Shown here piece by piece: positions 15,439 to 59,517 of a stretch of DNA of 64,000 bases. The notes below the pieces were generated by a model, which saw nothing but the letters and a program-made list of their open reading frames with translations, did not search any database and was not told the DNA's origin. A program made the translations under genes and the position numbers. Source of the stretch: an uncultured virus (IMG/VR IMGVR_UViG_2568526301_000001) (lineage: Duplodnaviria; Heunggongvirae; Uroviricota; Caudoviricetes); IMG/VR virus record IMGVR_UViG_2568526301_000001; one strand, given 5' to 3'. Positions within the stretch are counted from its first letter, which is position 1; each line of letters opens with the position of its first letter.

Positions 15439-16452
15439 CTACCTCTCACTAGTGAGGGGCGGCAGCGCATCAAGCGGTGAGCGCACTCCGGCACCGCCAA
15501 CTTTCAGCACATGCGTGTAAATCATCGTCGTAGAGACGTCGGAATGGCCGAGCAGATCCTGCACGGTTCGAATGTCGTAACCGCTGCGGAGCAAGGCCGT
15601 CGCGAACGAGTGGCGGAGGGTGTGCGGTGTGGCGGGCTTCGTGATGCCTGCTTGTTCTACGGCACGTTTGAAGGCGCGCTGAAAGGTCTGGTCATACATG
15701 TGATGGCGACGCACGACACCGCTCCGTGGATCGGTCGAATGCGTGTGCTGCGCAAAAACCCAGAACCACGGCCAGGAATGCCCGGCGCGCGGATACTTCC
15801 GCTCAAGGGCGTCGGGAAGCGCAACGCCGCTGCGGCCCTCGGCCTGGTCCTTCAGCCACCATGCCCGTGCACGCGACAGCTGCTCGCGCAGGCTGGGTGC
15901 CAAGCTCTCGGGTAACATCAAGGCCCGATCCTTGGAGCCCTTGCCCTCCCGCACGATGATCGTGCCGTGATCGAAATCCAGATCCTTGACCCGCAGTTGC
16001 AAACCCTCACTGATCCGCATGCCCGTTCCATACAGAAGCTGGGCGAACAAACGATGCTCGCCTTCCAGAAAACCGAGGATGCGAACCACTTCATCCGGGG
16101 TCAGCACCACCGGCAAGCGCCGCGACGGCCGAGGTCTTCCGATCTCCTGAAGCCAGGGCAGATCCGTGCACAGCACCTTGCCGTAGAAGAACAGCAAGGC
16201 CGCCAATGCCTGACGATGCGTGGAGACCGAAACCTTGCGCTCGTTCGCCAGCCAGGACAGAAATGCCTCGACTTCGCTGCTGCCCAAGGTTGCCGGGTGA
16301 CGCACACCGTGGAAACGGATGAAGGCACGAACCCAGTGGACATAAGCCTGTTCGGTTCGTAAACTGTAATGCAAGTAGCGTATGCGCTCACGCAACTGGT
16401 CCAGAACCTTGACCGAACGCAGCGGTGGTAACGGCGCAGTGGCGGTTTTCAT
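15439..16452 (-). CDS. intI1: Class 1 integron integrase IntI1
   Basis: [19 protein letters not shown], 337 aa, HTLRHSF motif. Confidence 0.99.
16337..16365 (+). promoter_or_regulatory. Cassette promoter Pc, hybrid variant PcH1
   Basis: TGGACA, 17 bp, TAAACT; P2 has the inactive 14-bp spacing. Confidence 0.9.
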
Positions 16453-16598
16453 GGCTTGTTATGACTGTTTTTTTGTACAGTCTATGCCTCGGGCATCCAA
16501 GCAGCAAGCGCGTTACGCCGTGGGTCGATGTTTGATGTTATGGAGCAGCAACGATGTTACGCAGCAGGGCAGTCGCCCTAAAACAAAGTTAACCCAGG

Positions 16599-17081
16599 AT
16601 GAGAACCTTGAAAGTATCATTGATGGCTGCGAAAGCGAAAAACGGCGTGATTGGTTGCGGTCCAGACATACCCTGGTCCGCGAAAGGGGAGCAGCTACTT
16701 TTTAAAGCATTGACCTACAATCAGTGGCTTCTGGTGGGTCGCAAGACGTTTGAATCTATGGGCGCACTCCCCAATAGGAAATACGCGGTCGTTACCCGCT
16801 CAGGTTGGACATCAAATGATGACAATGTAGTTGTATTTCAGTCAATCGAAGAGGCCATGGACAGGCTAGCTGAATTCACCGGTCACGTTATAGTGTCTGG
16901 TGGCGGAGAAATTTACCGAGAAACATTACCCATGGCCTCTACGCTCCACTTATCGACGATCGACATCGAGCCAGAGGGGGATGTTTTCTTCCCGAGTATT
17001 CCAAATACCTTCGAAGTTGTTTTTGAGCAACACTTTACTTCAAACATTAACTATTGCTATCAAATTTGGAAAAAGGGTTAA
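16599..17081 (+). CDS. dfrA14: Trimethoprim-resistant dihydrofolate reductase DfrA14
   Basis: [22 protein letters not shown]; cassette after attI1 with attC at ~17076-17160. Confidence 0.95.
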
Positions 17082-22483: not shown

Positions 22484-24528
22484 GGCACTGTTGCAAATAG
22501 TCGGTGGTGATAAACTTATCATCCCCTTTTGCTGATGGAGCTGCACATGAACCCATTCAAAGGCCGGCATTTTCAGCGTGACATCATTCTGTGGGCCGTA
22601 CGCTGGTACTGCAAATACGGCATCAGTTACCGTGAGCTGCAGGAGATGCTGGCTGAACGCGGAGTGAATGTCGATCACTCCACGATTTACCGCTGGGTTC
22701 AGCGTTATGCGCCTGAAATGGAAAAACGGCTGCGCTGGTACTGGCGTAACCCTTCCGATCTTTGCCCGTGGCACATGGATGAAACCTACGTGAAGGTCAA
22801 TGGCCGCTGGGCGTATCTGTACCGGGCCGTCGACAGCCGGGGCCGCACTGTCGATTTTTATCTCTCCTCCCGTCGTAACAGCAAAGCTGCATACCGGTTT
22901 CTGGGTAAAATCCTCAACAACGTGAAGAAGTGGCAGATCCCGCGATTCATCAACACGGATAAAGCGCCCGCCTATGGTCGCGCGCTTGCTCTGCTCAAAC
23001 GCGAAGGCCGGTGCCCGTCTGACGTTGAACACCGACAGATTAAGTACCGGAACAACGTGATTGAATGCGATCATGGCAAACTGAAACGGATAATCGGCGC
23101 CACGCTGGGATTTAAATCCATGAAGACGGCTTACGCCACCATCAAAGGTATTGAGGTGATGCGTGCACTACGCAAAGGCCAGGCCTCAGCATTTTATTAT
23201 GGTGATCCCCTGGGCGAAATGCGCCTGGTAAGCAGAGTTTTTGAAATGTAAGGCCTTTGAATAAGACAAAACGCTGCTGACCTGCTCCCCGTTGATTAGT
23301 ACACCCCGATGTTAGTAATGTCTTCATAAGCCACATGAGGACATCCCCATGAAGAAGCGTTTTTCCGACGAACAGATCATCTGTATTCTCCGCGAAGCCG
23401 AAGCTGGGGTACCCGCCCGTGAACTCTGCCGCAAGCATGCCATTTCCGATGCCACGTTTTACACCTGGCGTAAGAAGTATGGCGGTATGGAGGTGCCTGA
23501 AGTTAAGCGCCTGAAGTCGCTTGAGGAAGAGAACGCCAGACTCAAGAAGCTGCTTGCCGAAGCCATGCTGGATAAAGAGGCGCTTCAGGTGGCTCTTGGG
23601 CGAAAGTACTGACGACAGACCAGAAGCGGGAAGCCGTGATGCTGATGTGTGATGCGACCGGTCTGTCGCAACGTCGTGCCTGCAGGCTTACAGGTTTATC
23701 CCTGTCGACCTGCCGCTATGAGGCTCACCGTCCGGCTGCTGATGCGCATTTATCAGGGCGCATCACTGAGCTGGCACTGGAGCGCAGGCGTTTTGGCTAC
23801 CGTCGTATTTGGCAGTTGCTGCGCCGTGAAGGGCTTCATGTTAATCATAAGCGCGTGTACCGGCTTTATCACCTCAGTGGCCTGGGCGTAAAACGCAGAA
23901 GACGTCGTAAAGGGCTGGCAACAGAACGTCTGCCGCTGCTCCGTCCGGCGGCGCCCAATCTGACCTGGTCGATGGATTTCGTCATGGACGCACTTTCCAC
24001 CGGTCGCAGGATCAAGTGTCTTACCTGCGTCGATGATTTCACAAAGGAATGCCTGACGGTCACTGTTGCCTTTGGGATTTCAGGCGTTCAGGTCTCGCGT
24101 ATTCTGGACAGCATTGCACTGTTTCGAGGCTATCCGGCGACGATAAGAACTGACCAGGGGCCGGAGTTCACTTGCCGTGCACTGGATCAATGGGCCTTTG
24201 AGCATGGTGTTGAGTTGCGCTTAATCCAGCCGGGCAAGCCAACGCAGAACGGATTTATTGAGAGCTTTAACGGACGATTTCGCGATGAATGCCTGAATGA
24301 GCACTGGTTCAGCAATATCGTTCACGCAAGGAAAATCATTAATGACTGGCGGCAGGATTATAACGAGTGTCGTCCACATTCAGCACTGAATTATCAGACG
24401 CCATCAGAGTTTGCAGCACGGTGGCGAAATGGAAAATGTGAAGGTAAACAAACCGACCTTACTAACTGACGGTTGTATCTAACTCTGGGGGCAGGTCACT
24501 GCCTCATCGCTAACTTTGCAACAGTGCC
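22484..24528 (+). mobile_element. tnp26: IS26 interrupted near its right end by an IS3-family element
   Basis: 2045 bp = 820 + 1221 insert + 4 duplication; transposase ORF (22529-23251) intact. Confidence 0.95.
23278..24498 (+). mobile_element. IS3-family element (IS407 group, ISSen4-like), 1221 bp
   Basis: IRs TGACCTGCTCCCC / GGGGGCAGGTCA; OrfA 23349-23612, DDE OrfB to 24469; 4-bp duplication CTGC. Confidence 0.9.
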
Positions 24529-29206: not shown

Positions 29207-31476
29207 GTGTGCCCGGAGTTCAGGGCGGGCATGGATGCTTAAATGAACCGCGAGTCTGTCTGGAATATTGAACCGGTAACTCACGATGAGAAACCCAACA
29301 ATCCCACCGGGTGTGACGGTGGAGAACCTGAGCGGCAGTGACCTGCGGCATGCCCGCAGGGTGATGTAACCCGCTGACAACGGGGATTGAGGCGAGATCA
29401 CTAAGCCGAGATGATCCTCAAGGTTAAGTACTGAAAGGCTGAAGAACATGAACCCGTTAATCCGCCTCTGTGGGTTGAAAACGTCACCACGGCCTACGTG
29501 ATCTGACAGGCCGTGCAGGAGGAACTGGCAGTGATACGTAAGCACTGCCGGTCGAAGGTGTTTTGACATGTATGCGAAACACCGGGGCAGCAGCGTCTAT
29601 CACGCTTGCGTTGCTGACTTCTGCCAACTTGCGGCAAGCAAGGATAAAGAGTGCGACGGGCAGCCTCCTCAGTATGCCTGAGTCCAGGCAGGTAAACCGG
29701 GGAAGGTCAGCGACGGATGTTAAGGGGGCATGGCTCCGATGACGCGCTGGCTGGCGGAGCTTCCGTAGTAGTCCGCGATGGGGAAAGCCCATTACATGGC
29801 GAAGGGAAGCAGTTTGAATGTGTTTGCGACGTGAATTAACTGACCTAACGAGGTGAAGACCTTTGATAATCAGCGAAATGCAACGCAAGCTTGCCACATG
29901 GGCAGCCACCGATCCGTCCCTACGGATTCAACGGCTGCTGCGTCTGATAACACAACCAGAATGGCTGGCTGAAGCGGCGCGGATCACGCTTTCATCAAAG
30001 GGGGCCCATACCCCCGGCGTTGATGGCGTGAACAAAACAATGCTACAGGCCAGACTGGCTGTTGAGCTGCAAATCCTCAGGGATGAATTACTCTCAGGCC
30101 ACTACCAGCCCTTGCCCGCCAGACGGGTTTACATCCCTAAAAGCAACGGCAAACTGCGACCACTGGGTATCCCCGCGTTGCGGGATCGTATTGTTCAGCG
30201 GGCCATGCTGATGGCGATGGAGCCGATATGGGAGAGTGATTTTCATACGCTCTCATATGGCTTCCGGCCTGAGCGCAGTGTCCACCACGCGATCCGCACG
30301 GTGAAATTACAGCTCACAGACTGTGGTGAAACCCGGGGACGCTGGGTGATTGAAGGCGACCTGTCCAGTTACTTCGACACCGTACATCATCGACTGCTGA
30401 TGAAGGCTGTACGCCGCAGGATCAGTGACGCACGTTTCATGACTCTGCTGTGGAAAACCATCAAGGCGGGACATATCGATGTCGGTCTCTTTCGGGCGGC
30501 CAGTGAAGGTGTACCACAGGGCGGTGTTATATCGCCGCTATTATCGAACATCATGCTGAATGAGTTCGATCAATACCTGCATGAGCGCTACCTGAGCGGG
30601 AAAGCCAGAAAAGATCGGTGGTACTGGAATAACAGTATCCAACGGGGCCGAAGTACGGCGGTCAGAGAAAACTGGCAGTGGAAACCCGCGGTGGCGTACT
30701 GCCGCTATGCCGATGATTTTGTCCTCATCGTCAAAGGCACCAAAGCACAGGCGGAAGCCATCAGGGAGGAGTGTCGGGGTGTGCTCGAAGGCAGTCTGAA
30801 ACTCAGGCTGAACATGGATAAGACTAAAATCACCCATGTTAATGACGGCTTTATCTTTCTGGGGCACAGGATCATTCGCAAACGCAGTCGTTATGGCGAG
30901 ATGCGAGTGGTCTCAACGATCCCGCAGGAGAAAGCCAGAAACTTCGCCGCATCGCTGACAGCACTGTTATCAGGCAACTACAGTGAAAGCAAAGTCGATA
31001 TGGCTGAACAACTCAACCGAAAACTGAAAGGCTGGGCCATGTTCTATCAGTTCGTTGATTTTAAGGCCAAAGTCTTCAGTTATATCGACCGTGTCGTGTT
31101 CTGGAAGCTGGCTCACTGGCTGGCCCGCAAATACCGTACAGGTATCGCTTCCCTGATGAGGTGGTGGTGTAAATCACCGAAACCGGGTCAGAGCAAAACG
31201 TGGGTTTTATTTGGTAAAACCAATCACGGCAAGCTCAGCGGCGAAATACTGTACCGGTTGGTGGGGCAAGGCAAGAAGCTGTTCCGCTGGCGGCTACCCG
31301 AAGGTAATCCCTATCTGAGGACGGAGACCAGAAACACGTATACATCGCGCTTTACAGAAGTGGCAATGGCGTTCGCCAGCATTTAAATGGAGAGCCGGAT
31401 GCGCTGAAAGGTGCACGTCCGGTTCGGGGAGGAGAGGCAGGGAAATAGTCCGACTACGCCCTGCCTCTTACTCTAC
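29207..31476 (+). mobile_element. Group II intron, 2270 nt (E.c.I4/S.f.I1-like)
   Basis: 5' GTGTG, 3' AC, domain V ~31390-31428; removal restores GDVTY-IWTGKRW of OrfB. Confidence 0.92.
29863..31386 (+). CDS. ltrA: Group II intron reverse transcriptase/maturase
   Basis: RPLGIP, GVPQGG, YADD motifs; no C-terminal HNH domain seen. Confidence 0.95.
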   Translation: MIISEMQRKLATWAATDPSLRIQRLLRLITQPEWLAEAARITLSSKGAHTPGVDGVNKTMLQARLAVELQILRDELLSGHYQPLPARRVYIPKSNGKLRPLGIPALRDRIVQRAMLMAMEPIWESDFHTLSYGFRPERSVHHAIRTVKLQLTDCGETRGRWVIEGDLSSYFDTVHHRLLMKAVRRRISDARFMTLLWKTIKAGHIDVGLFRAASEGVPQGGVISPLLSNIMLNEFDQYLHERYLSGKARKDRWYWNNSIQRGRSTAVRENWQWKPAVAYCRYADDFVLIVKGTKAQAEAIREECRGVLEGSLKLRLNMDKTKITHVNDGFIFLGHRIIRKRSRYGEMRVVSTIPQEKARNFAASLTALLSGNYSESKVDMAEQLNRKLKGWAMFYQFVDFKAKVFSYIDRVVFWKLAHWLARKYRTGIASLMRWWCKSPKPGQSKTWVLFGKTNHGKLSGEILYRLVGQGKKLFRWRLPEGNPYLRTETRNTYTSRFTEVAMAFASI

Positions 31477-49839: not shown

Positions 49840-50022
49840 GAAACCAGAACATGCACACACAAAAAAACCGCTTGCCATGCCGCAATCGGTCAGGTTACAT
49901 TTCCGCTGCACCTCATAAAACGGGTGCCGGGATTCTCAACCCGATACAGAGCAAAGCGCATAACCGCGCCAGCGGTTTTTTTGTGCGTACTGTATTGCCA
50001 CGTCTTTTTCGCGTCAGAATTA

Positions 50023-50100
50023 TGGCGGGGCGTACGGGGCCGACTTCGGTCGGGCCGGATTCTTTGCTCTCCGGTGTTGAGAACCCTGTACGTCTCGCCA
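50023..50100 (+). ncRNA. C4/CI-type antisense RNA (78 nt)
   Basis: Closing stem TGGCGGGGCGTACGGGG / CCCTGTACGTCTCGCCA; loops CTTTGCTC and TTGAGAA complementary to upstream and downstream target pairs. Confidence 0.82.
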
Positions 50101-50161
50101 CCCCGAGATTCTCAACTCTGGATGGTGAGTTATTTCTATCACCGAGCAAAGAGGCCACACC

Positions 50162-50464: not shown

Positions 50465-50854
50465 ATGATTGACGCTCATGACTTCACAAGATGGGTGCGC
50501 ACACAGGACACCCGTCTGGCTCCCGTTCTTCAGGGATTATTTGATCTTTACATCCGTGGTCGTGACAACAGAGCACGCACTACAAAACCGGAGAATGCGG
50601 ACACCCTTTATTTCACAGTAGACGACTGCTACCGCGTGGACTTCACACCACACGGGCTGGCGTTGCACTGCCTGACACCACACGGCGAATCACTGCTGGC
50701 GTATTACGACTCCCCGGCCTCCGTATTCGCGGCAATGCTGGCGCATCGCACTGCTGGCGGGTGTGCCTCGCTGAGTGAATACACCGCTGAATTTAACCGC
50801 CTTTCCGCCATCTTCTCGCAGGAGTGGCAGCGCGTGACGGGATACCAGCCATGA
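50465..50854 (+). CDS. Phage hypothetical protein
   Basis: 129 aa, ATGA overlap with gene A. Confidence 0.7.
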   Translation: MIDAHDFTRWVRTQDTRLAPVLQGLFDLYIRGRDNRARTTKPENADTLYFTVDDCYRVDFTPHGLALHCLTPHGESLLAYYDSPASVFAAMLAHRTAGGCASLSEYTAEFNRLSAIFSQEWQRVTGYQP

Positions 50855-53616
50855 GCGAGTTTGCATGGAGCTGGAATGAACCACGGCCAGCCATTGATCC
50901 GGCCAGATTTACGGAGCGCAGGCAGGAAACTGAAACCGACCTGCAACGCGCCATCCGTTACTACCTTGAGGCAGACAAAAGGGCACAGGAAGAACAGGAA
51001 GCGAAGGAAGAAGCCTTTTTCGCACAATCCGCCATGGGTAAAAAACTCATGGCATCCCTTGAGGAAGCCGGACAGCGTGAAAAGCTGACACAGAGCATCA
51101 TCAGTAAGCGCCGGGCAACAGAACAAGACCCAGTAGCCCGTGCCTTTGCCACACTAAAGGCACTACCTGTTTATCTGCGTGAACCACTGAGCCGCCACCT
51201 CTCTTTCCTGCGCAAAAAACAGGAAGCCGATCGCCAGAAAGGCAAAAAGAGCTGGCAGGCTGAACGCTACGTGCGCGGAACCCTGCGCAAAATATTCGAA
51301 CGTCTGGAGCGCACCGACAGCCGCTGGCTGACACCGGGTTATCGCGCCCTTGCCGGACGCGAACGCCTGGACGATTTGCTTTACCTGCCGCAGCTTAACA
51401 AGCGCCAGATACAGACGCTGGCCACCATGACGGCGGCAATGTTCAGCAGCACCTTCGAAAAACTCTGCGACGGCTTTGGCGCGACCGATGGCGAGCTGAC
51501 CATGGATGTAACCCTGAAGGCGTATCAGATGCTGGCCCGCATGGCGTTACACCTGCACGCCATGCCTCCGCATTATGACGTACTGACAACAGACAAAGAC
51601 CGGAGGAACGAACCGGACACAGAGCTGCTGCCGGGTGCAATCCTTCGCCTGACCTGTGCGGACTGGTGGAAGCGCAAACTGTGGCTGTTACGTTGCGAGT
51701 GGCGGGAAGAACAACTCCGCGCCGCCTGTCTGGTTTCCAGAAAAACATCACCCTATCTGAGCCAGGACGCGTTAAGCGAGTTTCGCGCACAGCGCGAGAA
51801 AACACGCGATTTCCTGAAAAGTTTCATGCTGGAAAACGAAGACGGGTTCACGATTGATCTCGAGACGGTGTATTACGCGGGAGTAAGTAACCCGGTTCAC
51901 CGTAAGGCAGAAATGATGGCCACCATGAAGGGACTGGAACTTCTGGCCGAAGCCCGTGGCGACAAAGCGGTGTTTCTGACTGTCACCTGCCCGTCAAAAT
52001 ACCACGCCACAACAGAGAACGGTCATCCGAATCCCAAATGGAACGGGGCCACCATGCGCGACTCCAGCGATTACCTGGTTAACACGTTTTTTGCGGCTGT
52101 CCGCAAAAAACTGAACCGCGACGGTCTGCGCTGGTATGGCATCCGCACGGTGGAGCCTCACCATGACGGCACCGTGCACTGGCATATGATGGTCTTTGCT
52201 CATCCGGAAGAAATCGACACCATTGTGTCCCACACCCGCGATATTGCCATTCAGGAAGACCGCCACGAGCTGGGCGATGACATAACTCCGCGCTTTAAGG
52301 CGGAGTACGTCGACGGCTCAAAAGGCACACCAACCAGCTACATCGCCACCTACATCGGAAAGAACCTGGACAGCCACGCCGTGGATGGCATCGACCCGAA
52401 AACGGGCAAGCCACGCGTTGACCACGAAACCGGAAAATCAATGGCCGAGAGCGTGGAGCGCGCCATCGGCTGGGCGCGCCTTCACCGGGTCCGCCAGTTC
52501 CAGTTCTTTGGCATCCCCTCCCGTCAGGTGTGGCGTGAACTGCGCCGCCTTGCCAGCCAGATGGCACGCAACCCGGAAGGCCCGCAACGACTGAAGGACG
52601 ACGCAATGGATGCGGTACTCGCTGCCGCTGATGCCGGGTGTTTTGCCTCCTACATTGAAAAACAGGGTGGCGTACTTGTTCCACGTAAAGACTACCTGAT
52701 TCGCACCGCCTACGACCTCGCCGATGAGCTGAACGATTACGGCGAACAGAGCGTACAGATTTACGGGATCTGGTCACCACTCATCGGGGAATCCTCCCGT
52801 GTGTGCACGCATCCGGATAACTGGAAGCTGGTAAGACGTAAACCGGAAGCGGAAGACAGCGCCCGCGAAAATGGTTTTGACCTTCAGGGCGGCCCTGCCG
52901 CCCCTTGGACTCGTGGCAATAACTGTCCCCGTGTACAGGAAACGGACAACAACGGGACAGAACAGCCGGAGGAACGGCCAGCACCGTGGCCGCAGCTTCC
53001 TGAAGGCGTTGACGTGAATGAATGGATGCGCTCACTGAAACGGCACGAACGCCGGGCACTGATGCGTTCGCTGCGTGACAAACAGGCAAAAAACAGCAGT
53101 GATGAAATGCAGAACTGGACACAGAGCCGCAAACAGCCACAGCCTTTGCCTGATAACCACGAGTTACTCGCTAAAGAATGGCGGGAGTCTGCTGAATCTC
53201 TCGGCCTGCATATCGGTGAACAGCAGATGCAGCACCTGTTACGGGGCGGCAGTCTGTACGTTGGCGGCAGCATCATTACACCGCAGGGATTTGAAATTGT
53301 ACGCAAACCGGATACCCGCCCGGACAGCCGAATCACGCAGCTCTGGCAACGCCTGAGTCGTAATCACGGCGTAAGCAGCACGGAGATCCGCCATAACCCG
53401 GTCGCCAGCTATCTGGAACAACTAGAGGCATCAGACCCTGAAGCCGCCGCACGCCTGGCATCCACACTTCAGCAAGACCAGAACACCATGAAAACACCAG
53501 TTACCGTACTTTCTGACATGCTGCGCGCCATCCGCGACGCAGAGCACGCACAGAGAATCAATGAAACCACTAAACATGCTCGCAAAAAAATCAGTTTATT
53601 GCATCGAACACGATAG
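50851..53616 (+). CDS. A: Rolling-circle replication endonuclease gpA
   Basis: TCPSKYH, EPHHDGTVHWH (HUH), YIATYIGKN, RQFQFFG. Confidence 0.95.
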   Translation: MSEFAWSWNEPRPAIDPARFTERRQETETDLQRAIRYYLEADKRAQEEQEAKEEAFFAQSAMGKKLMASLEEAGQREKLTQSIISKRRATEQDPVARAFATLKALPVYLREPLSRHLSFLRKKQEADRQKGKKSWQAERYVRGTLRKIFERLERTDSRWLTPGYRALAGRERLDDLLYLPQLNKRQIQTLATMTAAMFSSTFEKLCDGFGATDGELTMDVTLKAYQMLARMALHLHAMPPHYDVLTTDKDRRNEPDTELLPGAILRLTCADWWKRKLWLLRCEWREEQLRAACLVSRKTSPYLSQDALSEFRAQREKTRDFLKSFMLENEDGFTIDLETVYYAGVSNPVHRKAEMMATMKGLELLAEARGDKAVFLTVTCPSKYHATTENGHPNPKWNGATMRDSSDYLVNTFFAAVRKKLNRDGLRWYGIRTVEPHHDGTVHWHMMVFAHPEEIDTIVSHTRDIAIQEDRHELGDDITPRFKAEYVDGSKGTPTSYIATYIGKNLDSHAVDGIDPKTGKPRVDHETGKSMAESVERAIGWARLHRVRQFQFFGIPSRQVWRELRRLASQMARNPEGPQRLKDDAMDAVLAAADAGCFASYIEKQGGVLVPRKDYLIRTAYDLADELNDYGEQSVQIYGIWSPLIGESSRVCTHPDNWKLVRRKPEAEDSARENGFDLQGGPAAPWTRGNNCPRVQETDNNGTEQPEERPAPWPQLPEGVDVNEWMRSLKRHERRALMRSLRDKQAKNSSDEMQNWTQSRKQPQPLPDNHELLAKEWRESAESLGLHIGEQQMQHLLRGGSLYVGGSIITPQGFEIVRKPDTRPDSRITQLWQRLSRNHGVSSTEIRHNPVASYLEQLEASDPEAAARLASTLQQDQNTMKTPVTVLSDMLRAIRDAEHAQRINETTKHARKKISLLHRTR
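52900..52926 (+). promoter_or_regulatory. P2-like replication origin inside gene A
   Basis: GCCCCTTGGACTCGTGGCAATAACTGT resembles P2 ori; encodes PWTRGNNC. Confidence 0.7.
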
Positions 53617-53661
53617 AAATATAGAGCTAAGGCCGCCCTAGGAATAAGGAGGCCTTGAAAA

Positions 53662-54471
53662 TCAACCTATCTTCTTATGAAGTAAAATTAATTTCTGTAT
53701 TAATTTGGAATGAAACATAGATATATCAGAAATTCTTATTTCATTAGGCGAGTCTATATGATTGGAAACTTCTTCCTCCAAGGAGTCACAAATACTTTCT
53801 AGATTTTCAATATCTGCATTTAATTCTGGAAAACTATTAAACAAATATAATGAATCCCGTAACTCTCCTAGTTTTGGTAAAAGAGTATTACTGAATACAC
53901 TAAGAAACTCCTCTTCTGATAATGCCATGGAGTTTTTAAAACTTTGCACAACATCGAATGCCAACCCATTAATTTTAGGCATAATTACTTCTCTTACCCA
54001 ATATCCTTCATTAATAGCTTCTTTACGTTCTTTTCTATGTTGAACATAAGGAATAACAAAGGATGAAACTAAGGCAAATAAAGAGATGCCAATAGAAATC
54101 CACTCTGGACCATTTTCCGGAACCTTTACAATATTATATATATCATGGGAATTTGGAACATCTTTGAAATAATTAGCAAATAAATCTTTTTTGTTATCCC
54201 TTGCCAGAGATAACTTATGAAAGGTGTCGTTTGCCTTTTCACAAAACATCAAGCCATCATTCGGGTTTCCGGATAACAAAAACGGTGATGATATACCACT
54301 AAGTCCTGAATCGGAAATATAAAAAGGCGTGTTTGGATAAAGTGACTCATTACATTCAATGTTTTCTTTATTGGAAAAATCTGTCACAGAGCAAGCTGCG
54401 GGGAATATAAAAAAAATGACAGACAGCGCTGTCATTTTGATTTGAAAAATATTTTTAAAAGAAGGGAACAT
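53662..54471 (-). CDS. Hypothetical membrane protein (hotspot gene 3)
   Basis: Hydrophobic N-terminus (ALSVIFFIFPAAC), central TM (WISIGISLFALVSSFVIPYV), helical C-terminus; AT-rich. Confidence 0.75.
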   Translation of the reverse strand: MFPSFKNIFQIKMTALSVIFFIFPAACSVTDFSNKENIECNESLYPNTPFYISDSGLSGISSPFLLSGNPNDGLMFCEKANDTFHKLSLARDNKKDLFANYFKDVPNSHDIYNIVKVPENGPEWISIGISLFALVSSFVIPYVQHRKERKEAINEGYWVREVIMPKINGLAFDVVQSFKNSMALSEEEFLSVFSNTLLPKLGELRDSLYLFNSFPELNADIENLESICDSLEEEVSNHIDSPNEIRISDISMFHSKLIQKLILLHKKIG

Positions 54472-54799
54472 TTTTATGTAAGCCTCTCCTTACAGCTCTA
54501 TCTAATTCAGAAAGCATACCTTCTTTATATTCACGACCATCAAGTACAGTGCGACTATAAAATTCGCTAGGCGAAGAAAATTTCGGCAAAACCGTTTCAA
54601 GCATACCTAGAAAGTATGAGCTTGATACAACAATTCCCTTGGGGATCAATAGATATAATCTATCATTACTGGTTGTGCAAAATTTCCCTATATTAAAGTA
54701 ATCATAGGCCTGGCGCCCATTAGAACGTCCAGCAAAAAGTTTCTTGTTACTATCTTTTACTAACTTATTGAAATCTATGGTGATGTCAGCCATTTTCAT
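54455..54799 (-). CDS. STAS-like (DUF4325-like) protein (hotspot gene 2)
   Basis: 114 aa; FAGRSNG and IVVSSSYFLGML patterns. Confidence 0.65.
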   Translation of the reverse strand: MKMADITIDFNKLVKDSNKKLFAGRSNGRQAYDYFNIGKFCTTSNDRLYLLIPKGIVVSSSYFLGMLETVLPKFSSPSEFYSRTVLDGREYKEGMLSELDRAVRRGLHKNVPFF

Positions 54800-54809
54800 G
54801 TACCTGTCC

Positions 54810-56189
54810 TCAAGTTCGCTGGGTGGCGTTTTCTGGTAGAGGAAAACGAATATTGATCATAACTCCAGGAAATCGAGCATCCTTCATACGCTTAAGATAG
54901 TTGCGATCCGGTTCAGATTCAAGCCCTACATCATTAAAAGGGTAAGTAAAAATGTCACTTTCCTCGTCATTAACCAACCTTTGCTTTAATTTATATGATC
55001 CATCAAAGTTAATATGAGTACTACCAGATATTAAAGTCATTTTTATCCCACCTTTAATATCTCTTCCCATTTTTTTAAGATTATCATGCATATCTTGAAA
55101 TAACTTCAATAATTCAATTGTTCCGGTGCCAGAACTGTCAGTTTCTTTCTCGTTTTTACAACTCACCCGCCCTTGCAAGGCCGCTACTGTTGTTAATCCT
55201 TCCTTAAACATACCCTTTTTCTTAATATGCTTATTTATGTATGGATTAACTTGTTGACTTAATGAAAAATGATCCTCAGGTAAATTATCAAAAGTTTCGC
55301 TGATAGTTTTCCCAAAATTGAAAACAGCCAACTCACATATGGGGTTTCGTACGTTATTATTAACAAAACCTCTCAAATACCAGCGTGGGCGTTGCTCTAA
55401 CCCACAATGCCGCTCCGCATTATCAAGGAGTTCCCCCATGCAGGAAGTTAAATGCTTTTCTGCCTCATGTACAAGTTTTAAATTATGATCATTTAAGCAT
55501 TCGTTTATGTATGCGGTAAATTTTTCAGCAGTGACATTTTTTCTGTCATGGGCAAAGGCAGAAGCATTCTCCTTTCCGATACTATCAGCAGAGAAGATTC
55601 GTTTCTTCGGATTCGCTTTTTTCGATGCTTCAGTAGAGTCCAGAACTTTACCTGGTGCAGCATTACTAATCTCTTTTACAAGCCCGACATCCCTGATAAT
55701 TTCAAGATACTGTTCATCTTTAGGGTAGATACCATTAATCTGAATCATCGTATCTTTGAAATTTATATTACTTTGCCTTGCTGCTGTAAGAGCAACACCT
55801 AATAGACACTCAAGACCAAGACAGTGTTTTTTGTTTTTCTTGTAATCAAAAATATATGATTTCCATTTACCTCTTGCAATTAATTTTGTGGCTGCACTAA
55901 TAAATAGCAGAGATTTCTCTGGATTGTCATATAAGTCAAAATATTTAGGTATTAATATCTTCTCTGCGTCACGACGAAGAATTGATGAGTCATACTCTTT
56001 TATAATCGATATATTTTCAATGAACGTAGCGACTTGGTTTTGGACAGGAGTTGTTTCATCGGAAAAACGAAGACTACCATTTTTCTCTTGCGCAGGCTTT
56101 TTTTTCTTAGCTCTCTCAACGCTACGAAGAAATCGCAACCATCCACGTAAAAAGGTTCTTTTAGAATCTTCTTTATTGATTTTTTTCAT
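54810..56189 (-). CDS. GHKL/HATPase-fold protein, kinase-like (hotspot gene 1)
   Basis: ELLDNAERH (N box), FNFGKTI (G1-like), SSGTGT (G2-like), PGVMINIRFP (G3-like); 459 aa from ATG 56189. Confidence 0.75.
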   Translation of the reverse strand: MKKINKEDSKRTFLRGWLRFLRSVERAKKKKPAQEKNGSLRFSDETTPVQNQVATFIENISIIKEYDSSILRRDAEKILIPKYFDLYDNPEKSLLFISAATKLIARGKWKSYIFDYKKNKKHCLGLECLLGVALTAARQSNINFKDTMIQINGIYPKDEQYLEIIRDVGLVKEISNAAPGKVLDSTEASKKANPKKRIFSADSIGKENASAFAHDRKNVTAEKFTAYINECLNDHNLKLVHEAEKHLTSCMGELLDNAERHCGLEQRPRWYLRGFVNNNVRNPICELAVFNFGKTISETFDNLPEDHFSLSQQVNPYINKHIKKKGMFKEGLTTVAALQGRVSCKNEKETDSSGTGTIELLKLFQDMHDNLKKMGRDIKGGIKMTLISGSTHINFDGSYKLKQRLVNDEESDIFTYPFNDVGLESEPDRNYLKRMKDARFPGVMINIRFPLPENATQRT

Positions 56190-56391
56190 TTCCAAATGTT
56201 CCTGCAAAGTTAACGTAGCCCACAAGGCGCTAAGTATACTTTCTGCTATATTTTTTTCACTATACAAATGCACAATAGTGCACAAATTTGCACAATTTTT
56301 TTGAACGACTTTTTGCCCTTCCAGCCCGCGTGGCGGCTGGATCCGTCAAGGATCCGTGCGTGCACAAAAAAACGCGCTTTTTCTGCGCGCA

Positions 56392-56719: not shown

Positions 56720-57766
56720 TCAGGCTGTGGGCTGGGTGTCTAACAGTGCGTAAGGGTTAAAGCGGATCACCTCTTCGCCCAGCCAGTCATTGATGTGCTT
56801 CATGGCCTCCATGACGGGCATCAGCTCGTTAATTGCGTAAACCCGCGCGGCCTTCTCCACATCACCAAACGCACTTTTTTCACCCGGCATCGCCCCCATC
56901 AGTTGCGGCGGAACGCGGTGCGCAGCCAGCACATCATCACGGGATGCCGCCTTAACATTCATGAACTCATCCTTTGCGGTGATCTGCTGGAACGGCAAAA
57001 TTTGCACCCCCTCTTTGCCCCCGTTGGGCGCATGAATGAGCACGTTTTTAAACGCACCACCACCACGTGCCCCCTGTAGCGTTTCTTTCAGGGAGTCCAT
57101 GCTTTCGCGGTTTACCTGCGCTGCACCGATGTAGATGATGCACCCGGCGTGGGATCCGTTGTCGTAATACAGTTTTCTGAACATGTCCGCCGAATGAGAC
57201 AGGCTGGCCGAGAGTAATGCGCCGAGATATTCCGGCATGCCGTAGATTTCCTGGTTAATGTCAGGATTCATCAGGTGGCACACTTTGCCAGGGCGAAACT
57301 GAAACGCATCCTTGCCATCCTGCACATACCACCATGATTCAAGATCGCTTCCGCGTCGCATGTATTTCGCCAGTGCGTGCCGTAATTTAAGCGGTTCGCC
57401 GAGCATATTGCTTCGAAGCTCAAGGAATGCGTTACCGAACACAAACCAGTCCAGCGCCAGCGCCGAGAAATCCTGCCGGGAAAGCAGCGGGTGCGGGATG
57501 TAGCAGCCGAGTAATACATTGCGCTTAAAGTAAAGCGCAGACTGATGCCAGGACGTTTGCCGGGCAGCTCTTGCCAGACCGTACCAGTCTACCGGGGTTT
57601 CATACCACCGCCCGTTATCAGCACAGTACATATTGTCCAGCAAATCATGCCCGGTCAGGCGATAAGGACCATCAAATGTGAATGCACTGAGCGACGATTC
57701 TTTCCTGAGCGCATCAGCGAGATCAATGCGTGAACTCATGCGCACTTTTTTATTTTTTCTGCTCAT
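56720..57766 (-). CDS. Q: Portal protein gpQ
   Basis: QEIYGMPEY, YYDNGSHAG, AHRVPPQLMG. Confidence 0.95.
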   Translation of the reverse strand: MSRKNKKVRMSSRIDLADALRKESSLSAFTFDGPYRLTGHDLLDNMYCADNGRWYETPVDWYGLARAARQTSWHQSALYFKRNVLLGCYIPHPLLSRQDFSALALDWFVFGNAFLELRSNMLGEPLKLRHALAKYMRRGSDLESWWYVQDGKDAFQFRPGKVCHLMNPDINQEIYGMPEYLGALLSASLSHSADMFRKLYYDNGSHAGCIIYIGAAQVNRESMDSLKETLQGARGGGAFKNVLIHAPNGGKEGVQILPFQQITAKDEFMNVKAASRDDVLAAHRVPPQLMGAMPGEKSAFGDVEKAARVYAINELMPVMEAMKHINDWLGEEVIRFNPYALLDTQPTA

Positions 57767-59517
57767 CAGAACTCCATAACCGTGAAACGCTCGTTTTCTC
57801 CTTCGCCGCCAATCGGTTCGTTAATGACAGCAAGCATGGTTGCCCACGCAAGGTCGCCGTGGCTGATCCCCCTCGCGCGGTCCGTTTCGTATGTGATAAA
57901 GCCGCCCGGTGTTTTCACCTTACGCACGGCGTTAAAGGCCGCGACCAGCTCACGTTCGGCGCGATCGTATTCCCACCGCCCGGCACGCATTATTTGCAAC
58001 ATTTTCAGTACCAGCGACCGTTTTGATGACAGCGTGAAGGTGTACGGAATAGCAGCAGGGAAAAACCGTTTCACTATCTGATAAACAGCCTCCCCGTTCC
58101 CGCCTGTCACATCAATGCCGATGTGTTCCACGTTGTAGCGACACGTGAACTCTTCAATGACTCTGGCCTGTTCTTCAAACTCCAGCCCCTGAACGCGTCG
58201 CGTCTCCACCGTTCGAAAACGGCCTCCAGGAACAGCCGGAGGAACCACCACGGACACAGCGCCGCTGTCGCCGTTTCCACTGCTGCCGTTTGCGTCATAC
58301 CCAATCCATACCGGACGATTCCCCATCGGGCGGGGAGCAAAAGGTTTCCAGTCTTTCCAGTCGTCGTATCCGTCAACACCGCAGCCAATCAGGATATTCA
58401 GGTTAAATGCCGATTCCCCTTCGCGGACAAACTCACACATATAGAGATTGCGGAACTCGTCTTCGGTGTTTTCATCACGAATTTCGTCAATATCGGTGTG
58501 TTTCCAGCCGTGATTAACCACATCTTCCAGCGTGACAATTTGCCGCCACGTCCGGTCAGGGCAGATAAGCCCGTTATGCAGCGTTTTCCAGTCCACAGAA
58601 AAACGCTGGCGTTTATGCGTGGCCTTTTTCTCGTTCCAGCGGTCGCCGTTCCAGTAGGCGTATGCCTCGTGCGTTTCGGTGGATGGCGTGGAGAAGTAGG
58701 TGCGCCGCAGTCCGCTGAGGGTTGCCATAGCGCCAGCCACCTTGCGCAGTTCAGCAAAGCGACTGACCCAGAAAAATTCATCAAAATAAAAATTGCCCGT
58801 GTAGGACTGTGCCGTCGCAGCAGAAGTACCAAGAAAATGCAGCTCTGCGCCGTTGGAGAGGATGATTTTATCGCCCCCTTTCAGCTCCACATCAACTTCA
58901 GATGCAGCCTTCTGAATAATGCTTTTAAACTGGAACGCCTGACGACGCGACGCAGACAAAAAAATCTGGTTACGCTGGTAAGGTTGCGCCACATCGTCAC
59001 GCAGCGCCATCAGCAGTGCTTCCTGTGCAAAATACCAGGTCGCTCCAATCTGTCGGGATTTCAGGATCATCCTGTTACGTATCCCGGCTTCCCTGCAAAG
59101 GGTCAGGGAGTCAAACCAGCCCCGCTGATGCCACTCCAGCCTGCTGATGATTTTTTCCCGCAGTGCGGCAATCTGTTCCTGCGTGAAATGATTTTTGAGT
59201 TTTTTCGCCCGGCTTTTCTTTCCTGTGGCCGTCGCATCCGGCTGGCCATCATGCAGTTTTTTAAGCTGCCGGGTCAGCAGGTCTATTTCCTTAAAGTCAC
59301 CGCCTGTTTTATTCTTTTTTTCAGTAAGCTGGATGAGGCGCGCATCGATGGACTGCGTGACACGCTGCACGGGTGGTGTTTCATCCCACTGGTCGCGTTT
59401 TTTCCACGCATAAATCGTGTTCGGGTTTATTCCCATCAGACGTGATATTTCTGCGGGCGGATAACCCTGCCAGTAAAGTTGCCGCGCACGCTGGCGCACA
59501 AAAGCGTCCTGAATCAT
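57766..59517 (-). CDS. P: Terminase ATPase subunit gpP
   Basis: LKSRQIGATW, YFDEFFW, HGDLAWA. Confidence 0.95.
   Translation of the reverse strand: MIQDAFVRQRARQLYWQGYPPAEISRLMGINPNTIYAWKKRDQWDETPPVQRVTQSIDARLIQLTEKKNKTGGDFKEIDLLTRQLKKLHDGQPDATATGKKSRAKKLKNHFTQEQIAALREKIISRLEWHQRGWFDSLTLCREAGIRNRMILKSRQIGATWYFAQEALLMALRDDVAQPYQRNQIFLSASRRQAFQFKSIIQKAASEVDVELKGGDKIILSNGAELHFLGTSAATAQSYTGNFYFDEFFWVSRFAELRKVAGAMATLSGLRRTYFSTPSTETHEAYAYWNGDRWNEKKATHKRQRFSVDWKTLHNGLICPDRTWRQIVTLEDVVNHGWKHTDIDEIRDENTEDEFRNLYMCEFVREGESAFNLNILIGCGVDGYDDWKDWKPFAPRPMGNRPVWIGYDANGSSGNGDSGAVSVVVPPAVPGGRFRTVETRRVQGLEFEEQARVIEEFTCRYNVEHIGIDVTGGNGEAVYQIVKRFFPAAIPYTFTLSSKRSLVLKMLQIMRAGRWEYDRAERELVAAFNAVRKVKTPGGFITYETDRARGISHGDLAWATMLAVINEPIGGEGENERFTVMEF

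Follow-up and report, generated by a model that had tools for sequence, protein, structure and literature searches.

A three-gene cassette of a P2-like prophage as a candidate kinase-controlled defence module of the CapK/CapS–VapKSC kind

The A–Q hotspot of a P2-like E. coli prophage carries a three-gene cassette that may be a kinase-controlled, toxin–antitoxin-like (abortive-infection) defence module of the CapK/CapS–VapKSC kind, a reading that we hold with about even confidence. CapK/CapS and VapKSC are the closest known systems (Chambers, Rani, Min, Villa and Corbett, EMBO J 2026; PMC13373217). By analogy with these systems, the cassette would be a variant of the VapKSC kind in which a membrane effector takes the place of the PIN toxin, with defence and phosphorylation carried over by the same analogy. 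What we show for the cassette itself is computational: how its genes are ordered and how far that order is conserved, which folds gene 1 has, the family to which gene 2 is linked, how gene 3 sits in the membrane, the mobile-element setting and the occurrence in contigs from RNA libraries.

Setting of the cassette

The window, by which we mean the whole 64,000-nt stretch of viral DNA analysed, contains three closely coupled minus-strand open reading frames (ORFs) between phage genes A and Q (Table 1); a 10-nt gap (54800-54809) separates genes 1 and 2, and genes 2 and 3 overlap by 17 nt (54455-54471). GC content is 0.32-0.39 over 53500-56249 against 0.51-0.60 in the flanks. Spacing and composition agree with a sequence-only reading of this DNA, which had described three tightly coupled AT-rich genes, and the flanking replication protein A and portal Q bear out its placement of the cassette in the A–Q (cos-proximal) hotspot. 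The cassette, 2.5 kb in size, is native to E. coli, and a near-identical E. coli record has the matching order: replication endonuclease, three hypothetical proteins, portal.

Table 1 Features of the cassette and its flanks, in window coordinates
Feature	Position	Strand	Basis or remark
Replication protein A, 930 aa	50824-53616	+	Flank of cassette
Weak terminator-like hairpins	53622-53641	-	Directly 3' of gene 3
Gene 3	53662-54471	-	269 aa; ORF and translation
Gene 3, conserved cytoplasmic helical domain	53665-54039	-	Homologue alignment, hydropathy
Gene 3, TM helix, aa 122-144	54040-54108	-	Hydropathy
Gene 3, signal/lipobox, aa 1-27	54391-54471	-	Lipobox-like [TA][AG]CS in most homologues
Gene 2	54455-54799	-	114 aa; ORF and translation
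Gene 2, invariant Ser59-61	54617-54625	-	Within VSSSYF
Gene 1	54810-56189	-	459 aa from ATG at 56189; ORF opens at TTG, 54810-56285
Gene 1, GHKL (Bergerat) domain, anti-sigma serine-kinase type, aa 195-454	54828-55607	-	Fold matches
Gene 1, SSGTGT, aa 352-357	55119-55136	-	G-box-like
Gene 1, FNFGKTI, aa 290-296	55302-55322	-	G-box-like
Gene 1, N-box ELLDNAERH, aa 253-261	55407-55433	-	GHKL motif
Gene 1, STAS-fold domain, aa ~64-186	55632-56000	-	Fold match of predicted structure
Gene 1, K/R-rich helix, aa 1-35	56085-56189	-	Helix 6-28 in AF2 model
Promoter-like site GTGAAA, 16 nt, TATACT	56233-56260	-	Ahead of gene 1; consensus match only
Terminator-like hairpin and T run	56372-56390	-	Between Q/cos side and cassette
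Portal Q	56720-57766	-	Flank of cassette

In P2-like phages the A–Q slot has been validated as a reservoir of anti-phage systems, and Table S5A of Rousset 2022 has about 100 entries for this cassette, as 'hypothetical x3', from P2 hotspots of E. coli; the cassette was not among the systems cloned there, and two alternative accessions in that table, WP_001548207 and WP_000781351, may be different start calls. No model in PADLOC, Pfam or NCBIfam matched any of genes 1-3, and the absence of a PADLOC defence match is in line with the earlier reader's not recognising it as a named system. The three-gene system of pFR109, listed as 'hp + hp + hp', is also known as Rst_3HP. It was validated from E. 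coli E1114 and likewise comprises three unannotated proteins in the P2 A–Q hotspot (Rousset 2022); its sequences in Table S2A are unlike those of the cassette, and neither Table S2A nor Table S2B contains peptide strings of genes 1-3. In the comparison with three-gene P2-hotspot systems that the sequence-only reading had proposed, the pFR109 proteins differ from those of the cassette. STAS or kinase terms were not found in the text of Moura de Sousa 2026, and HATPase comes up in the DefensePredictor paper only where a legend describes another predicted system.

Gene 1: a predicted STAS–GHKL protein

The AF2 model of gene 1 (pLDDT 84.2, pTM 0.83) places a STAS-fold domain ahead of a GHKL domain, the top four structural matches of which are SpoIIAB, RsbW, the RsbW domain of Rv1364c and UsfX; Foldseek 'pdb' matches were weak for the gene-1 and gene-2 models alike. 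By these matches, gene 1 folds as a GHKL protein and belongs with the anti-sigma kinases of the SpoIIAB/RsbW type. Its description as GHKL kinase-like, made from the letters, is therefore upheld, although that description missed the N-terminal STAS-fold domain, to which the GHKL domain is fused just as it is in the CapK and VapK proteins. At the start of the chain is a basic helix (the first 40 residues include 14 K/R but 4 D/E), a character retained across the homologue alignment.

GHKL proteins are recognised by an N-box (ExxxN), a G1 box (DxGxG) and the glycines of a G2 box, the classical G1 position being an Asp. All the strings previously picked out in gene 1 (ELLDNAERH, FNFGKTI, SSGTGT and PGVMINIRFP, the last at aa 441-450) lie where they had been reported, and E253, N257, H261, N291, G293, G354, G356, F440, P441 and G442 are invariant in 44 aligned homologues; this invariance of motif residues, which gene 2 shares, marks the motifs as conserved features and not chance strings. 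At the G1 position the same 44 homologues have an invariant Asn (N291, in FNFG) in place of Asp, meaning that ATP binding and kinase activity of gene 1 are not assured.

Sequence searches with gene 1 matched no HATPase model in Pfam, no chain by profile among PDB sequences and nothing by tblastn among 50,697 phage records. Each of its 59 homologue clusters is without a name; the PHROGs match is a family of unknown function (phrog_3364, 2.4e-7), and the neighbours of gene 1 in the ESM Atlas are unnamed clusters, with 5 of 30 matches in clusters that have HATPase_c on 10% of members. Neither a DHp domain nor a receiver occurs in gene 1 or the cassette, consistent with the earlier remark that a His-phosphoacceptor domain and response regulator are lacking, and no HTH family in Pfam matched gene 1 or gene 2.

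That gene 1 matches anti-sigma factors best in structure would suit a classical anti-sigma partner switch over prophage or host transcription, with gene 3 as its membrane anchor. We consider this extremely improbable: Pfam found no sigma factor or PP2C phosphatase among the only three ORFs between genes A and Q, the cassette has no DNA-binding domain, the wHTH that CapS has is missing from gene 2, and the trio travels as a self-contained unit among unrelated mobile elements. The likeness to SpoIIAB–SpoIIAA and RsbW–RsbV lies in the predicted anti-sigma kinase fold; in contrast to those switches, which involve a sigma factor and a PP2C phosphatase, the cassette has a STAS-fused kinase, sits on a prophage and includes a membrane protein as third partner.

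Gene 2: profile kinship with DUF4325

Gene 2 is predicted to be a single-domain, small alpha/beta protein (pLDDT 89.8), with its SSS at the start of helix 60-67, which follows strands 48-51 and 57-58. The VSSSYF noticed earlier is present, and S59, S60, S61, Y62 and G65 are invariant in 37 homologues.

The Pfam model of the STAS-like family DUF4325 (PF14213; gathering score 23 bits) gave no match to gene 2 at E <= 1, but relatives found by profile do match it. The gene-2 profile search retrieves about 121 representatives; 13 of 122 match DUF4325 at E <= 0.01, 15 of 120 at E <= 0.05, and 5 of 120 exceed 23 bits, four of these five being single-domain proteins matched over the same region. No other family recurs among the scanned representatives. 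Judged by these profiles, gene 2 is a distant DUF4325 relative that lies beyond the reach of the Pfam model. Of the STAS/DUF4325-like character first ascribed to gene 2, distant kinship with DUF4325 thus stands by profile, whereas a STAS fold was not confirmed by structure search with the gene-2 model; the best match of the gene-2 profile in the PDB, the STAS antagonist TM1081, was not significant (E 0.42). The PHROGs match is again a family of unknown function (phrog_37359, 0.006).

A link between gene 2 and the DUF4325 protein of locus L002, returned by hhalign at E 6.7e-9, was rejected: it falls in gap columns of gene 2, in a ragged alignment of 122 remote gene-2 relatives. The iterated gene-2 profile scores the same L002 protein at 8.4 bits only.

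Gene 3: a predicted bitopic membrane protein

Hydropathy, which marks segments at aa 8-33 and 122-144, and the homologue alignment agree with the topology earlier proposed for gene 3, namely a signal-like N-terminus, a periplasmic part, one TM helix and a helical cytoplasmic domain. From these sequence features, gene 3 is a bitopic membrane protein and probably a lipoprotein. Homologues share 43-72% identity in the cytoplasmic domain against 11-46% in the periplasmic part, and W158 and P165 are invariant. Searches of Pfam, PHROGs, the ESM Atlas and, by profile, the PDB showed resemblance to no known pore-former or effector: the best PDB match was a designed helical bundle (E 0.077), the ESM Atlas gave no match above 0.9, and Pfam gave no PIN match. 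With one TM helix only, gene 3 gives little ground for proposing toxicity.

The low identity of the periplasmic part would fit an exposed, contested surface, as might be expected were gene 3 a sensor of phage adsorption, DNA injection or envelope damage that relays its signal through the cytoplasmic domain, with the kinase as effector acting on phage or host proteins. Known partner switches do receive input from membrane or large sensor modules, and among the three proteins gene 1 is both the largest and the most conserved. Related trios, however, do without the periplasmic part: the third protein of locus L010 has 161 aa, and the third proteins of class II and of the L002/L049 type start at the TM helix. 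A part missing from relatives cannot be the core of the mechanism and, in the only relatives put to the test (PMC13373217), it is the kinase that senses ssDNA and the third protein that is the effector; we therefore regard a sensor role for gene 3 as unlikely.

It is very unlikely that gene 3 acts in superinfection exclusion, keeping DNA out or blocking an envelope receptor while genes 1 and 2 merely regulate it, since its conserved part is cytoplasmic, its periplasmic part is dispensable in relatives, and kinase–STAS pairs have no known role in such exclusion. The lipobox-like signal and periplasmic domain would suit that role, and prophage lipoproteins that block entry are known, such as Llp of T5 and Cor.

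Distribution and mobile context

A gene-2-like ORF adjoins the gene-1 relative in 25 of 27 IMG/VR loci, and a gene-3-type ORF is present as well in 24 of the 27. Among genome loci, the trio was found in 21 of 24 (19 by script and 2 by eye), covering Gamma-, Beta- and Alphaproteobacteria and one Bacteroidetes MAG. The sequence-only reading had suggested a survey of the third genes that accompany the kinase–STAS pair; these proved to be single-pass membrane proteins of three unrelated families: class I, class II and the type of loci L002 and L049. Of 5426 complete E. coli genomes, 23 carry the cassette. About 150 partial E. coli matches had been candidates for carriers of other gene-3 alleles; because genes 1 and 2 are confined to the 23 genomes, these are flank matches.

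Mobile-element genes occur in the sampled flanks of 15 of 21 non-duplicate loci, two of which, in Yersinia and Sphingomonas, belong to other P2-type prophages; trios also lie on plasmids, a Tn7-like element and integrative islands. Defence genes are nearby in only 4 of the 21 loci (AbiE, PifA/TIR, Cas8c and SIR2_2).

Addiction modules are common on plasmids, Tn7-like elements and integrative islands, and a toxin–antitoxin or DNA-damage stress module that stabilises the prophage or serves general stress, with no specific anti-phage role, would be at home there. VapKSC itself answers a general DNA-damage signal, and Chambers et al. describe the line between stress response and immunity as blurred (PMC13373217). 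Against this reading, which we find improbable, stand the record of the A–Q slot as an anti-phage reservoir and the protection of about 2-log that VapKSC gave against one phage (PMC13373217); the two roles are not exclusive.

Comparison with VapKSC and CapK/CapS

According to Chambers et al. (PMC13373217), VapK consists of a STAS and a GHKL domain, to which CapK adds an N-terminal HTH; the small protein of VapKSC, which has a STAS domain and a fully conserved Ser/Thr where a STAS helix begins, is an antitoxin whose phosphorylation frees a VapC-like PIN toxin, CapS has a C-terminal wHTH and is a transcriptional repressor, and CapS Ser54 and VapS Ser48 sit at the N-terminus of a helix after a strand. 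The cassette resembles VapKSC as a three-gene operon in which a STAS plus GHKL kinase, predicted here, is followed by a protein of about 115 aa that has a conserved serine and is of STAS type in VapKSC and putatively STAS-like here, and then by a third protein. The STAS domain of gene 1 precedes its GHKL domain as in VapK, gene 2 (114 aa) is close in length to VapS (about 116 aa), its SSS is placed in the predicted structure at a helix start after a strand as are Ser54 and Ser48, and both systems frequently lie close to defence genes or on mobile elements.

The main difference is the third gene, which encodes a bitopic membrane protein that is probably a lipoprotein, where VapKSC has a PIN nuclease. 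At the VapKSC-like locus L045 (HATPase_c, DUF4325 and PIN), the small protein matches DUF4325 at 3.8e-15, and gene 2 falls outside the Pfam threshold for that family; gene 1 exceeds the L045 VapK-like kinase by about 170 aa and has the basic N-terminal helix in addition. Comparisons with L045 by hhalign were not significant (gene 1 with the kinase, E 0.11; gene 2 with the DUF4325 protein, E 0.34); with single sequences as templates, from L045 as from L002 and L049, hhalign had little power.

With CapK/CapS the cassette shares an anti-sigma-like STAS–GHKL kinase directly followed by its STAS-type (putative) substrate, and links to immune loci. Instead of the N-terminal HTH of CapK, the gene-1 model has a single basic helix; unlike CapS, gene 2 is one domain without a DNA-binding domain; and no immune operon lies downstream of genes 2 and 3, gene A converging on the cassette. 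These published precedents (PMC13373217) make the earlier suggestion of a partner switch repurposed for defence more plausible and, at the same time, less novel than had been assumed.

Proposed working of the cassette

For the kinase-controlled, toxin–antitoxin-like module that we favour, each step of binding, phosphorylation, triggering and toxicity, and phage protection itself, is proposed by analogy. In the uninfected lysogen, the gene-2 protein would keep the membrane protein of gene 3 inactive by binding to its cytoplasmic helical domain. An infection cue, most likely ssDNA or another nucleic-acid signal sensed between the STAS and kinase domains of gene 1 or by its basic N-terminal helix, would switch on gene 1 as a STAS–GHKL serine kinase, which would phosphorylate gene 2 on one of Ser59-61. 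Phosphorylated gene 2 would then release gene 3, and freed gene 3 would damage or depolarise the inner membrane, such that the infected cell no longer supports the incoming phage.

A bolder scheme, which we think quite unlikely, is that STAS–GHKL kinase and STAS-like substrate form a general, portable trigger, which on at least three separate occasions became joined to unrelated membrane proteins of the single-pass type, and that the enterobacterial partner gained a fast-evolving periplasmic lipoprotein domain; the outcome would be a two-way trans-envelope switch that senses both envelope attack and cytoplasmic DNA signals and leads to phosphorylation-gated membrane disruption. We know of no described defence system that works as such a switch.

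Should the defence reading hold, serine phosphorylation of a STAS antitoxin would be a reusable immunity switch, gating membrane effectors in addition to VapC, a nuclease, and CapS, a repressor; the cassette entered about 100 times by Rousset et al. as 'hypothetical x3' would gain a function, and PADLOC and DefenseFinder would gain three new protein families. Small and native to E. coli, the cassette is for these reasons a convenient model for a STAS protein that would restrain a membrane toxin.

Expression signals

The promoter-like site ahead of gene 1 comes from a consensus search that found 8 sites against 9.6 expected. One contig spans all three genes in each of four RNA-labelled runs, from four studies, although contigs cannot prove transcription, strand or level. 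On the gene-1 side these contigs end at 56214-56298; on the other, they extend past the weak hairpins downstream of gene 3 into the 3' end of the convergent gene A. As a hint only, contig depth being unable to rank genes, the mean word depth of the operon contig exceeded that of the flank contigs in three of the four runs.

A precedent for the kinase–STAS–membrane protein cassette

The three-gene cassette between phage genes A and Q (gene 1, kinase-like; gene 2, STAS-like; gene 3, membrane protein) is a real feature, and the sequence-only reading of it as a partner switch repurposed for defence was largely right; what did not stand was its lack of precedent, given CapK/CapS and VapKSC as described in the main text of Chambers et al. 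(EMBO J 2026, PMC13373217). According to that text, ssDNA switches on CapK (HTH-STAS-GHKL), a kinase that modifies CapS (STAS-wHTH) by phosphorylation at a conserved serine. The proposed substrate of VapK (STAS-GHKL) is VapS, a ~116-aa STAS antitoxin whose phosphomimetic S48E form loses binding and neutralisation of the PIN toxin VapC, and the vapKSC operon gave ~2-log protection against one phage. We regard this work as the decisive precedent: the cassette may be a VapKSC-like, phosphorylation-gated toxin–antitoxin or abortive-infection module in which a membrane protein, encoded by the third gene, replaces the nuclease found there in VapKSC, a reading to which we give about an even chance. 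The link is one of architecture and fold, not of demonstrable homology. The main text of PMC13373217 makes no mention of a transmembrane partner, and within the literature searched no other paper was found to contain 'VapKSC' or 'VapK'.

The A–Q slot was defined as a defence hotspot by Rousset et al. 2022 (PMC9122126), in whose tables the exact trio (WP_000723541 + WP_000763711 + WP_000484450) is catalogued ~100 times as 'hypothetical + hypothetical + hypothetical' and is absent among the cloned systems; the proteins of the validated 'hp + hp + hp' cassette there differ from those of this trio. We found no mention of the trio accessions in the main texts of the literature searched.

Layout, flanks and RNA-library contigs

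The three minus-strand ORFs lie exactly as first described, genes 1 and 2 being 10 nt apart and genes 2 and 3 overlapping by 17 nt, and all the motifs quoted for them were found in the sequence. Cassette GC is 0.32–0.39, against 0.51–0.60 on either flank. A 100% identical stretch is present in a complete E. coli genome, within a P2-type prophage; its annotation there reads 'replication endonuclease / hypothetical protein x3 / phage portal protein'. Taken as a class, promoter-like sites show no excess here over shuffles. Just upstream of the one preceding the cassette, three TTGTGCA repeats stand in exact 10-bp phase (56275–56295, minus strand).

Coordinates of the cassette, its flanks and the RNA-library contigs in the window
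Feature	Position	Strand	Remark
Gene 1	54810-56189	minus	ORF, 459 aa from ATG; TTG 96 nt upstream also open
Gene 2	54455-54799	minus	ORF, 114 aa
Gene 3	53662-54471	minus	ORF, 269 aa
Replication gene A	50824-53616	+	cassette flank
Portal and terminase genes Q and P	56720-59517	minus	cassette flank
Strong terminator-like hairpin	56390-56372		between Q/cos side and cassette
Promoter-like site	-35 at 56260, -10 at 56238-56233		between Q/cos side and cassette
X1 contig	53531-56296
X5 contig	53391-56298
X7 contig	53059-56224
X8 contig	53163-56214		end in adapter sequence

Twelve RNA-labelled runs from six studies contained at least 94% of the sampled words. Contigs were examined in four runs out of the 24 listed, drawn from four studies, and in all four a single contig bridged the three genes, its upstream end either level with the promoter-like site or slightly downstream of it. 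The opposite ends pass the gene-3 stop and enter gene A, which is convergent, at its 3' end (window 53059–53661; A ends at 53616); were the cassette transcripts genuine, they would run antisense to the last part of A. Since such contigs prove neither transcription, strand nor level, they are supportive only of cassette expression.

Genes 1 and 2

Sequence libraries and a profile search gave no identification for gene 1, whose homologues (59 clusters from Enterobacterales, Aeromonas and Vibrio) are all unnamed. Across 44 aligned sequences the ATP-lid-type residues E253, N257 and H261 (ELLDNAERH) are invariant, as are N291 and G293 (FNFG), G354 and G356 (GTGT) and F440-P441-G442. The G1-box residue is Asp in classical GHKL proteins; at this position the aligned sequences carry an invariant Asn, a point of caution for the kinase assignment. 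An AlphaFold2 model from the same alignment was confident (pLDDT 84.2, pTM 0.83); in Foldseek its E-values were weak, with a SpoIIAB probability of 0.97, and an exhaustive VIA search returned two clean match sets.

Gene 2 homologues form 41 clusters, their locus tags often adjacent to those of gene-1 homologues, with K19, L21-R25, N27-G28, S59-S60-S61-Y62, G65, L67, E98, R101-A102 and R105 invariant. A profile of 37 sequences found 121 proteins at E <= 1e-3 among 1.84 billion representatives. When the profile's finds were scanned against Pfam, DUF4325 ('STAS-like domain') was matched in 13 of 122 at E <= 0.01 and in 15 of 120 relatives at E <= 0.05; five relatives exceeded its 23-bit cut-off, four of them single-domain proteins matched over the same region, and no other family was seen more than once. 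Because relatives match DUF4325 and gene 2 itself lies below the reach of Pfam, we label it, from sequence, a distant DUF4325 relative, a weaker statement than 'a STAS protein'. Canonical DUF4325 and gene-2-like domains occur in one chain in P0198, a metagenomic protein of 362 aa (88–156 and 258–331, respectively), indicating that they are paralogous modules. The N-terminus of P0198 is zinc-finger-like.

Gene 3 and the third position

Hydropathy bears out the predicted topology of gene 3: a signal segment at the N-terminus (aa 8–33) and one transmembrane helix (aa 122–144) followed by QHRKERKE. A lipobox-like [TA][AG]CS ends the signal in most homologues (PAACS in gene 3). Conservation falls on the transmembrane helix and the helical cytoplasmic domain, in which W158 and P165 are invariant and E155, R160-I163, K166, F172, R205, E232, F253 and H265 nearly so; neither library nor PDB profile searches put a name to this domain. 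The periplasmic part is 11–46% identical where the cytoplasmic domain is 43–72%, and it is wholly absent from some relatives, such as the 161-aa protein of locus L010. That gene 3 is an envelope sensor seems improbable to us.

A gene-1 relative was present at 24 loci of the genome collection. The full trio was found by script at 19 of these and by eye also at L022 and L026, where the small gene is concealed inside a longer ORF; L009 stops at a contig edge, and the duplicates L013 and L014 have no clear third gene. Third genes beside the kinase–STAS pair proved to be either gene-3 homologues, at Gamma- and Betaproteobacterial loci, or class II, an unrelated N-terminal-TM helical protein at 10 loci (Alphaproteobacteria and one Bacteroidetes MAG). 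The gene-3 homologues of L007 and L008, outside the model-building set, scored E 6e-11 against the gene-3 model. In IMG/VR, a gene-2-like ORF adjoins the gene-1 relative in 25 of 27 viral contigs, 24 of which also carry a class I (gene-3 type) or class II third gene. A transcriptional partner switch is the least probable of the readings considered, a slim chance at best.

Mobile context

Mobile-element genes flank 15 of the 21 non-duplicate loci. Two of these loci are in P2-type prophages, one of Yersinia, where the same A–Q slot is occupied, and one of Sphingomonas; the flanks also include a small Rep3/MobA plasmid and a Tn7-like element, as well as integrases and a T4SS coupling protein. Isolated-phage records gave no gene 1 match. 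Superinfection exclusion is very unlikely. Recognised defence genes lie near four loci (AbiEi/AbiEii; PifA with a TIR protein; Cas8c; SIR2_2), and genes 1–2 occur in 23 of 5426 complete E. coli genomes. A general stress or addiction module has a small chance, on a par with the envelope sensor. A 3,147-bp contig labelled as a Planococcaceae MAG (L003) carries all three genes, its gene 1 100% identical to that of the E. coli cassette, and is probably a contaminant in that bin.

DUF4325 loci and other elements

DUF4325 was present in 58 of 400 sampled Gammaproteobacteria genomes. Locus L045 encodes a VapKSC-like kinase, DUF4325 and PIN arrangement, and in L055 DUF4325 is the partner of a STAS_2 + HATPase_c kinase; L028 (1456–2487) encodes an HTH-HATPase_c_2-DUF4325 single chain, in which kinase and STAS-like partner are naturally fused. 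This ~345-aa form, with C-terminal DUF4325, was the commonest sampled in Gammaproteobacteria (L028 and ~20 similar loci). L002 (975–2936) and L049 (385–2211) pair a GHKL-type kinase and canonical DUF4325 with an N-terminal-TM protein of 152–155 aa that belongs to a third, unrelated family; together with the cassette-type trios, they show that the coupling of kinase–STAS pairs to single-pass membrane proteins recurs, a theme so far undescribed. The cassette proteins showed no significant sequence similarity to these DUF4325-locus relatives, and among PADLOC models only 'gop' matched in L002, weakly (E 0.025). Next to the L002 trio, which comes from an Escherichia genome, lies an integrase-like gene.

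Elsewhere in the window, an Rfam AAC_AAD_leader / attI signal (16542–16614, 64 bits) is found next to an ORF of 337 aa on the minus strand (15439–16452), making 15439–16614 an integron-like region ~30 kb from the prophage cargo. Further mobile DNA lies in the first half: an IS1222-type ribosomal frameshift element at 23579–23696 (152 bits) and, at 31390–31476, the catalytic domain of a group II intron (65 bits). Adjacent isrK (49908–49982) and C4 antisense RNA (50018–50105) matches lie just upstream of the prophage replication-gene region.
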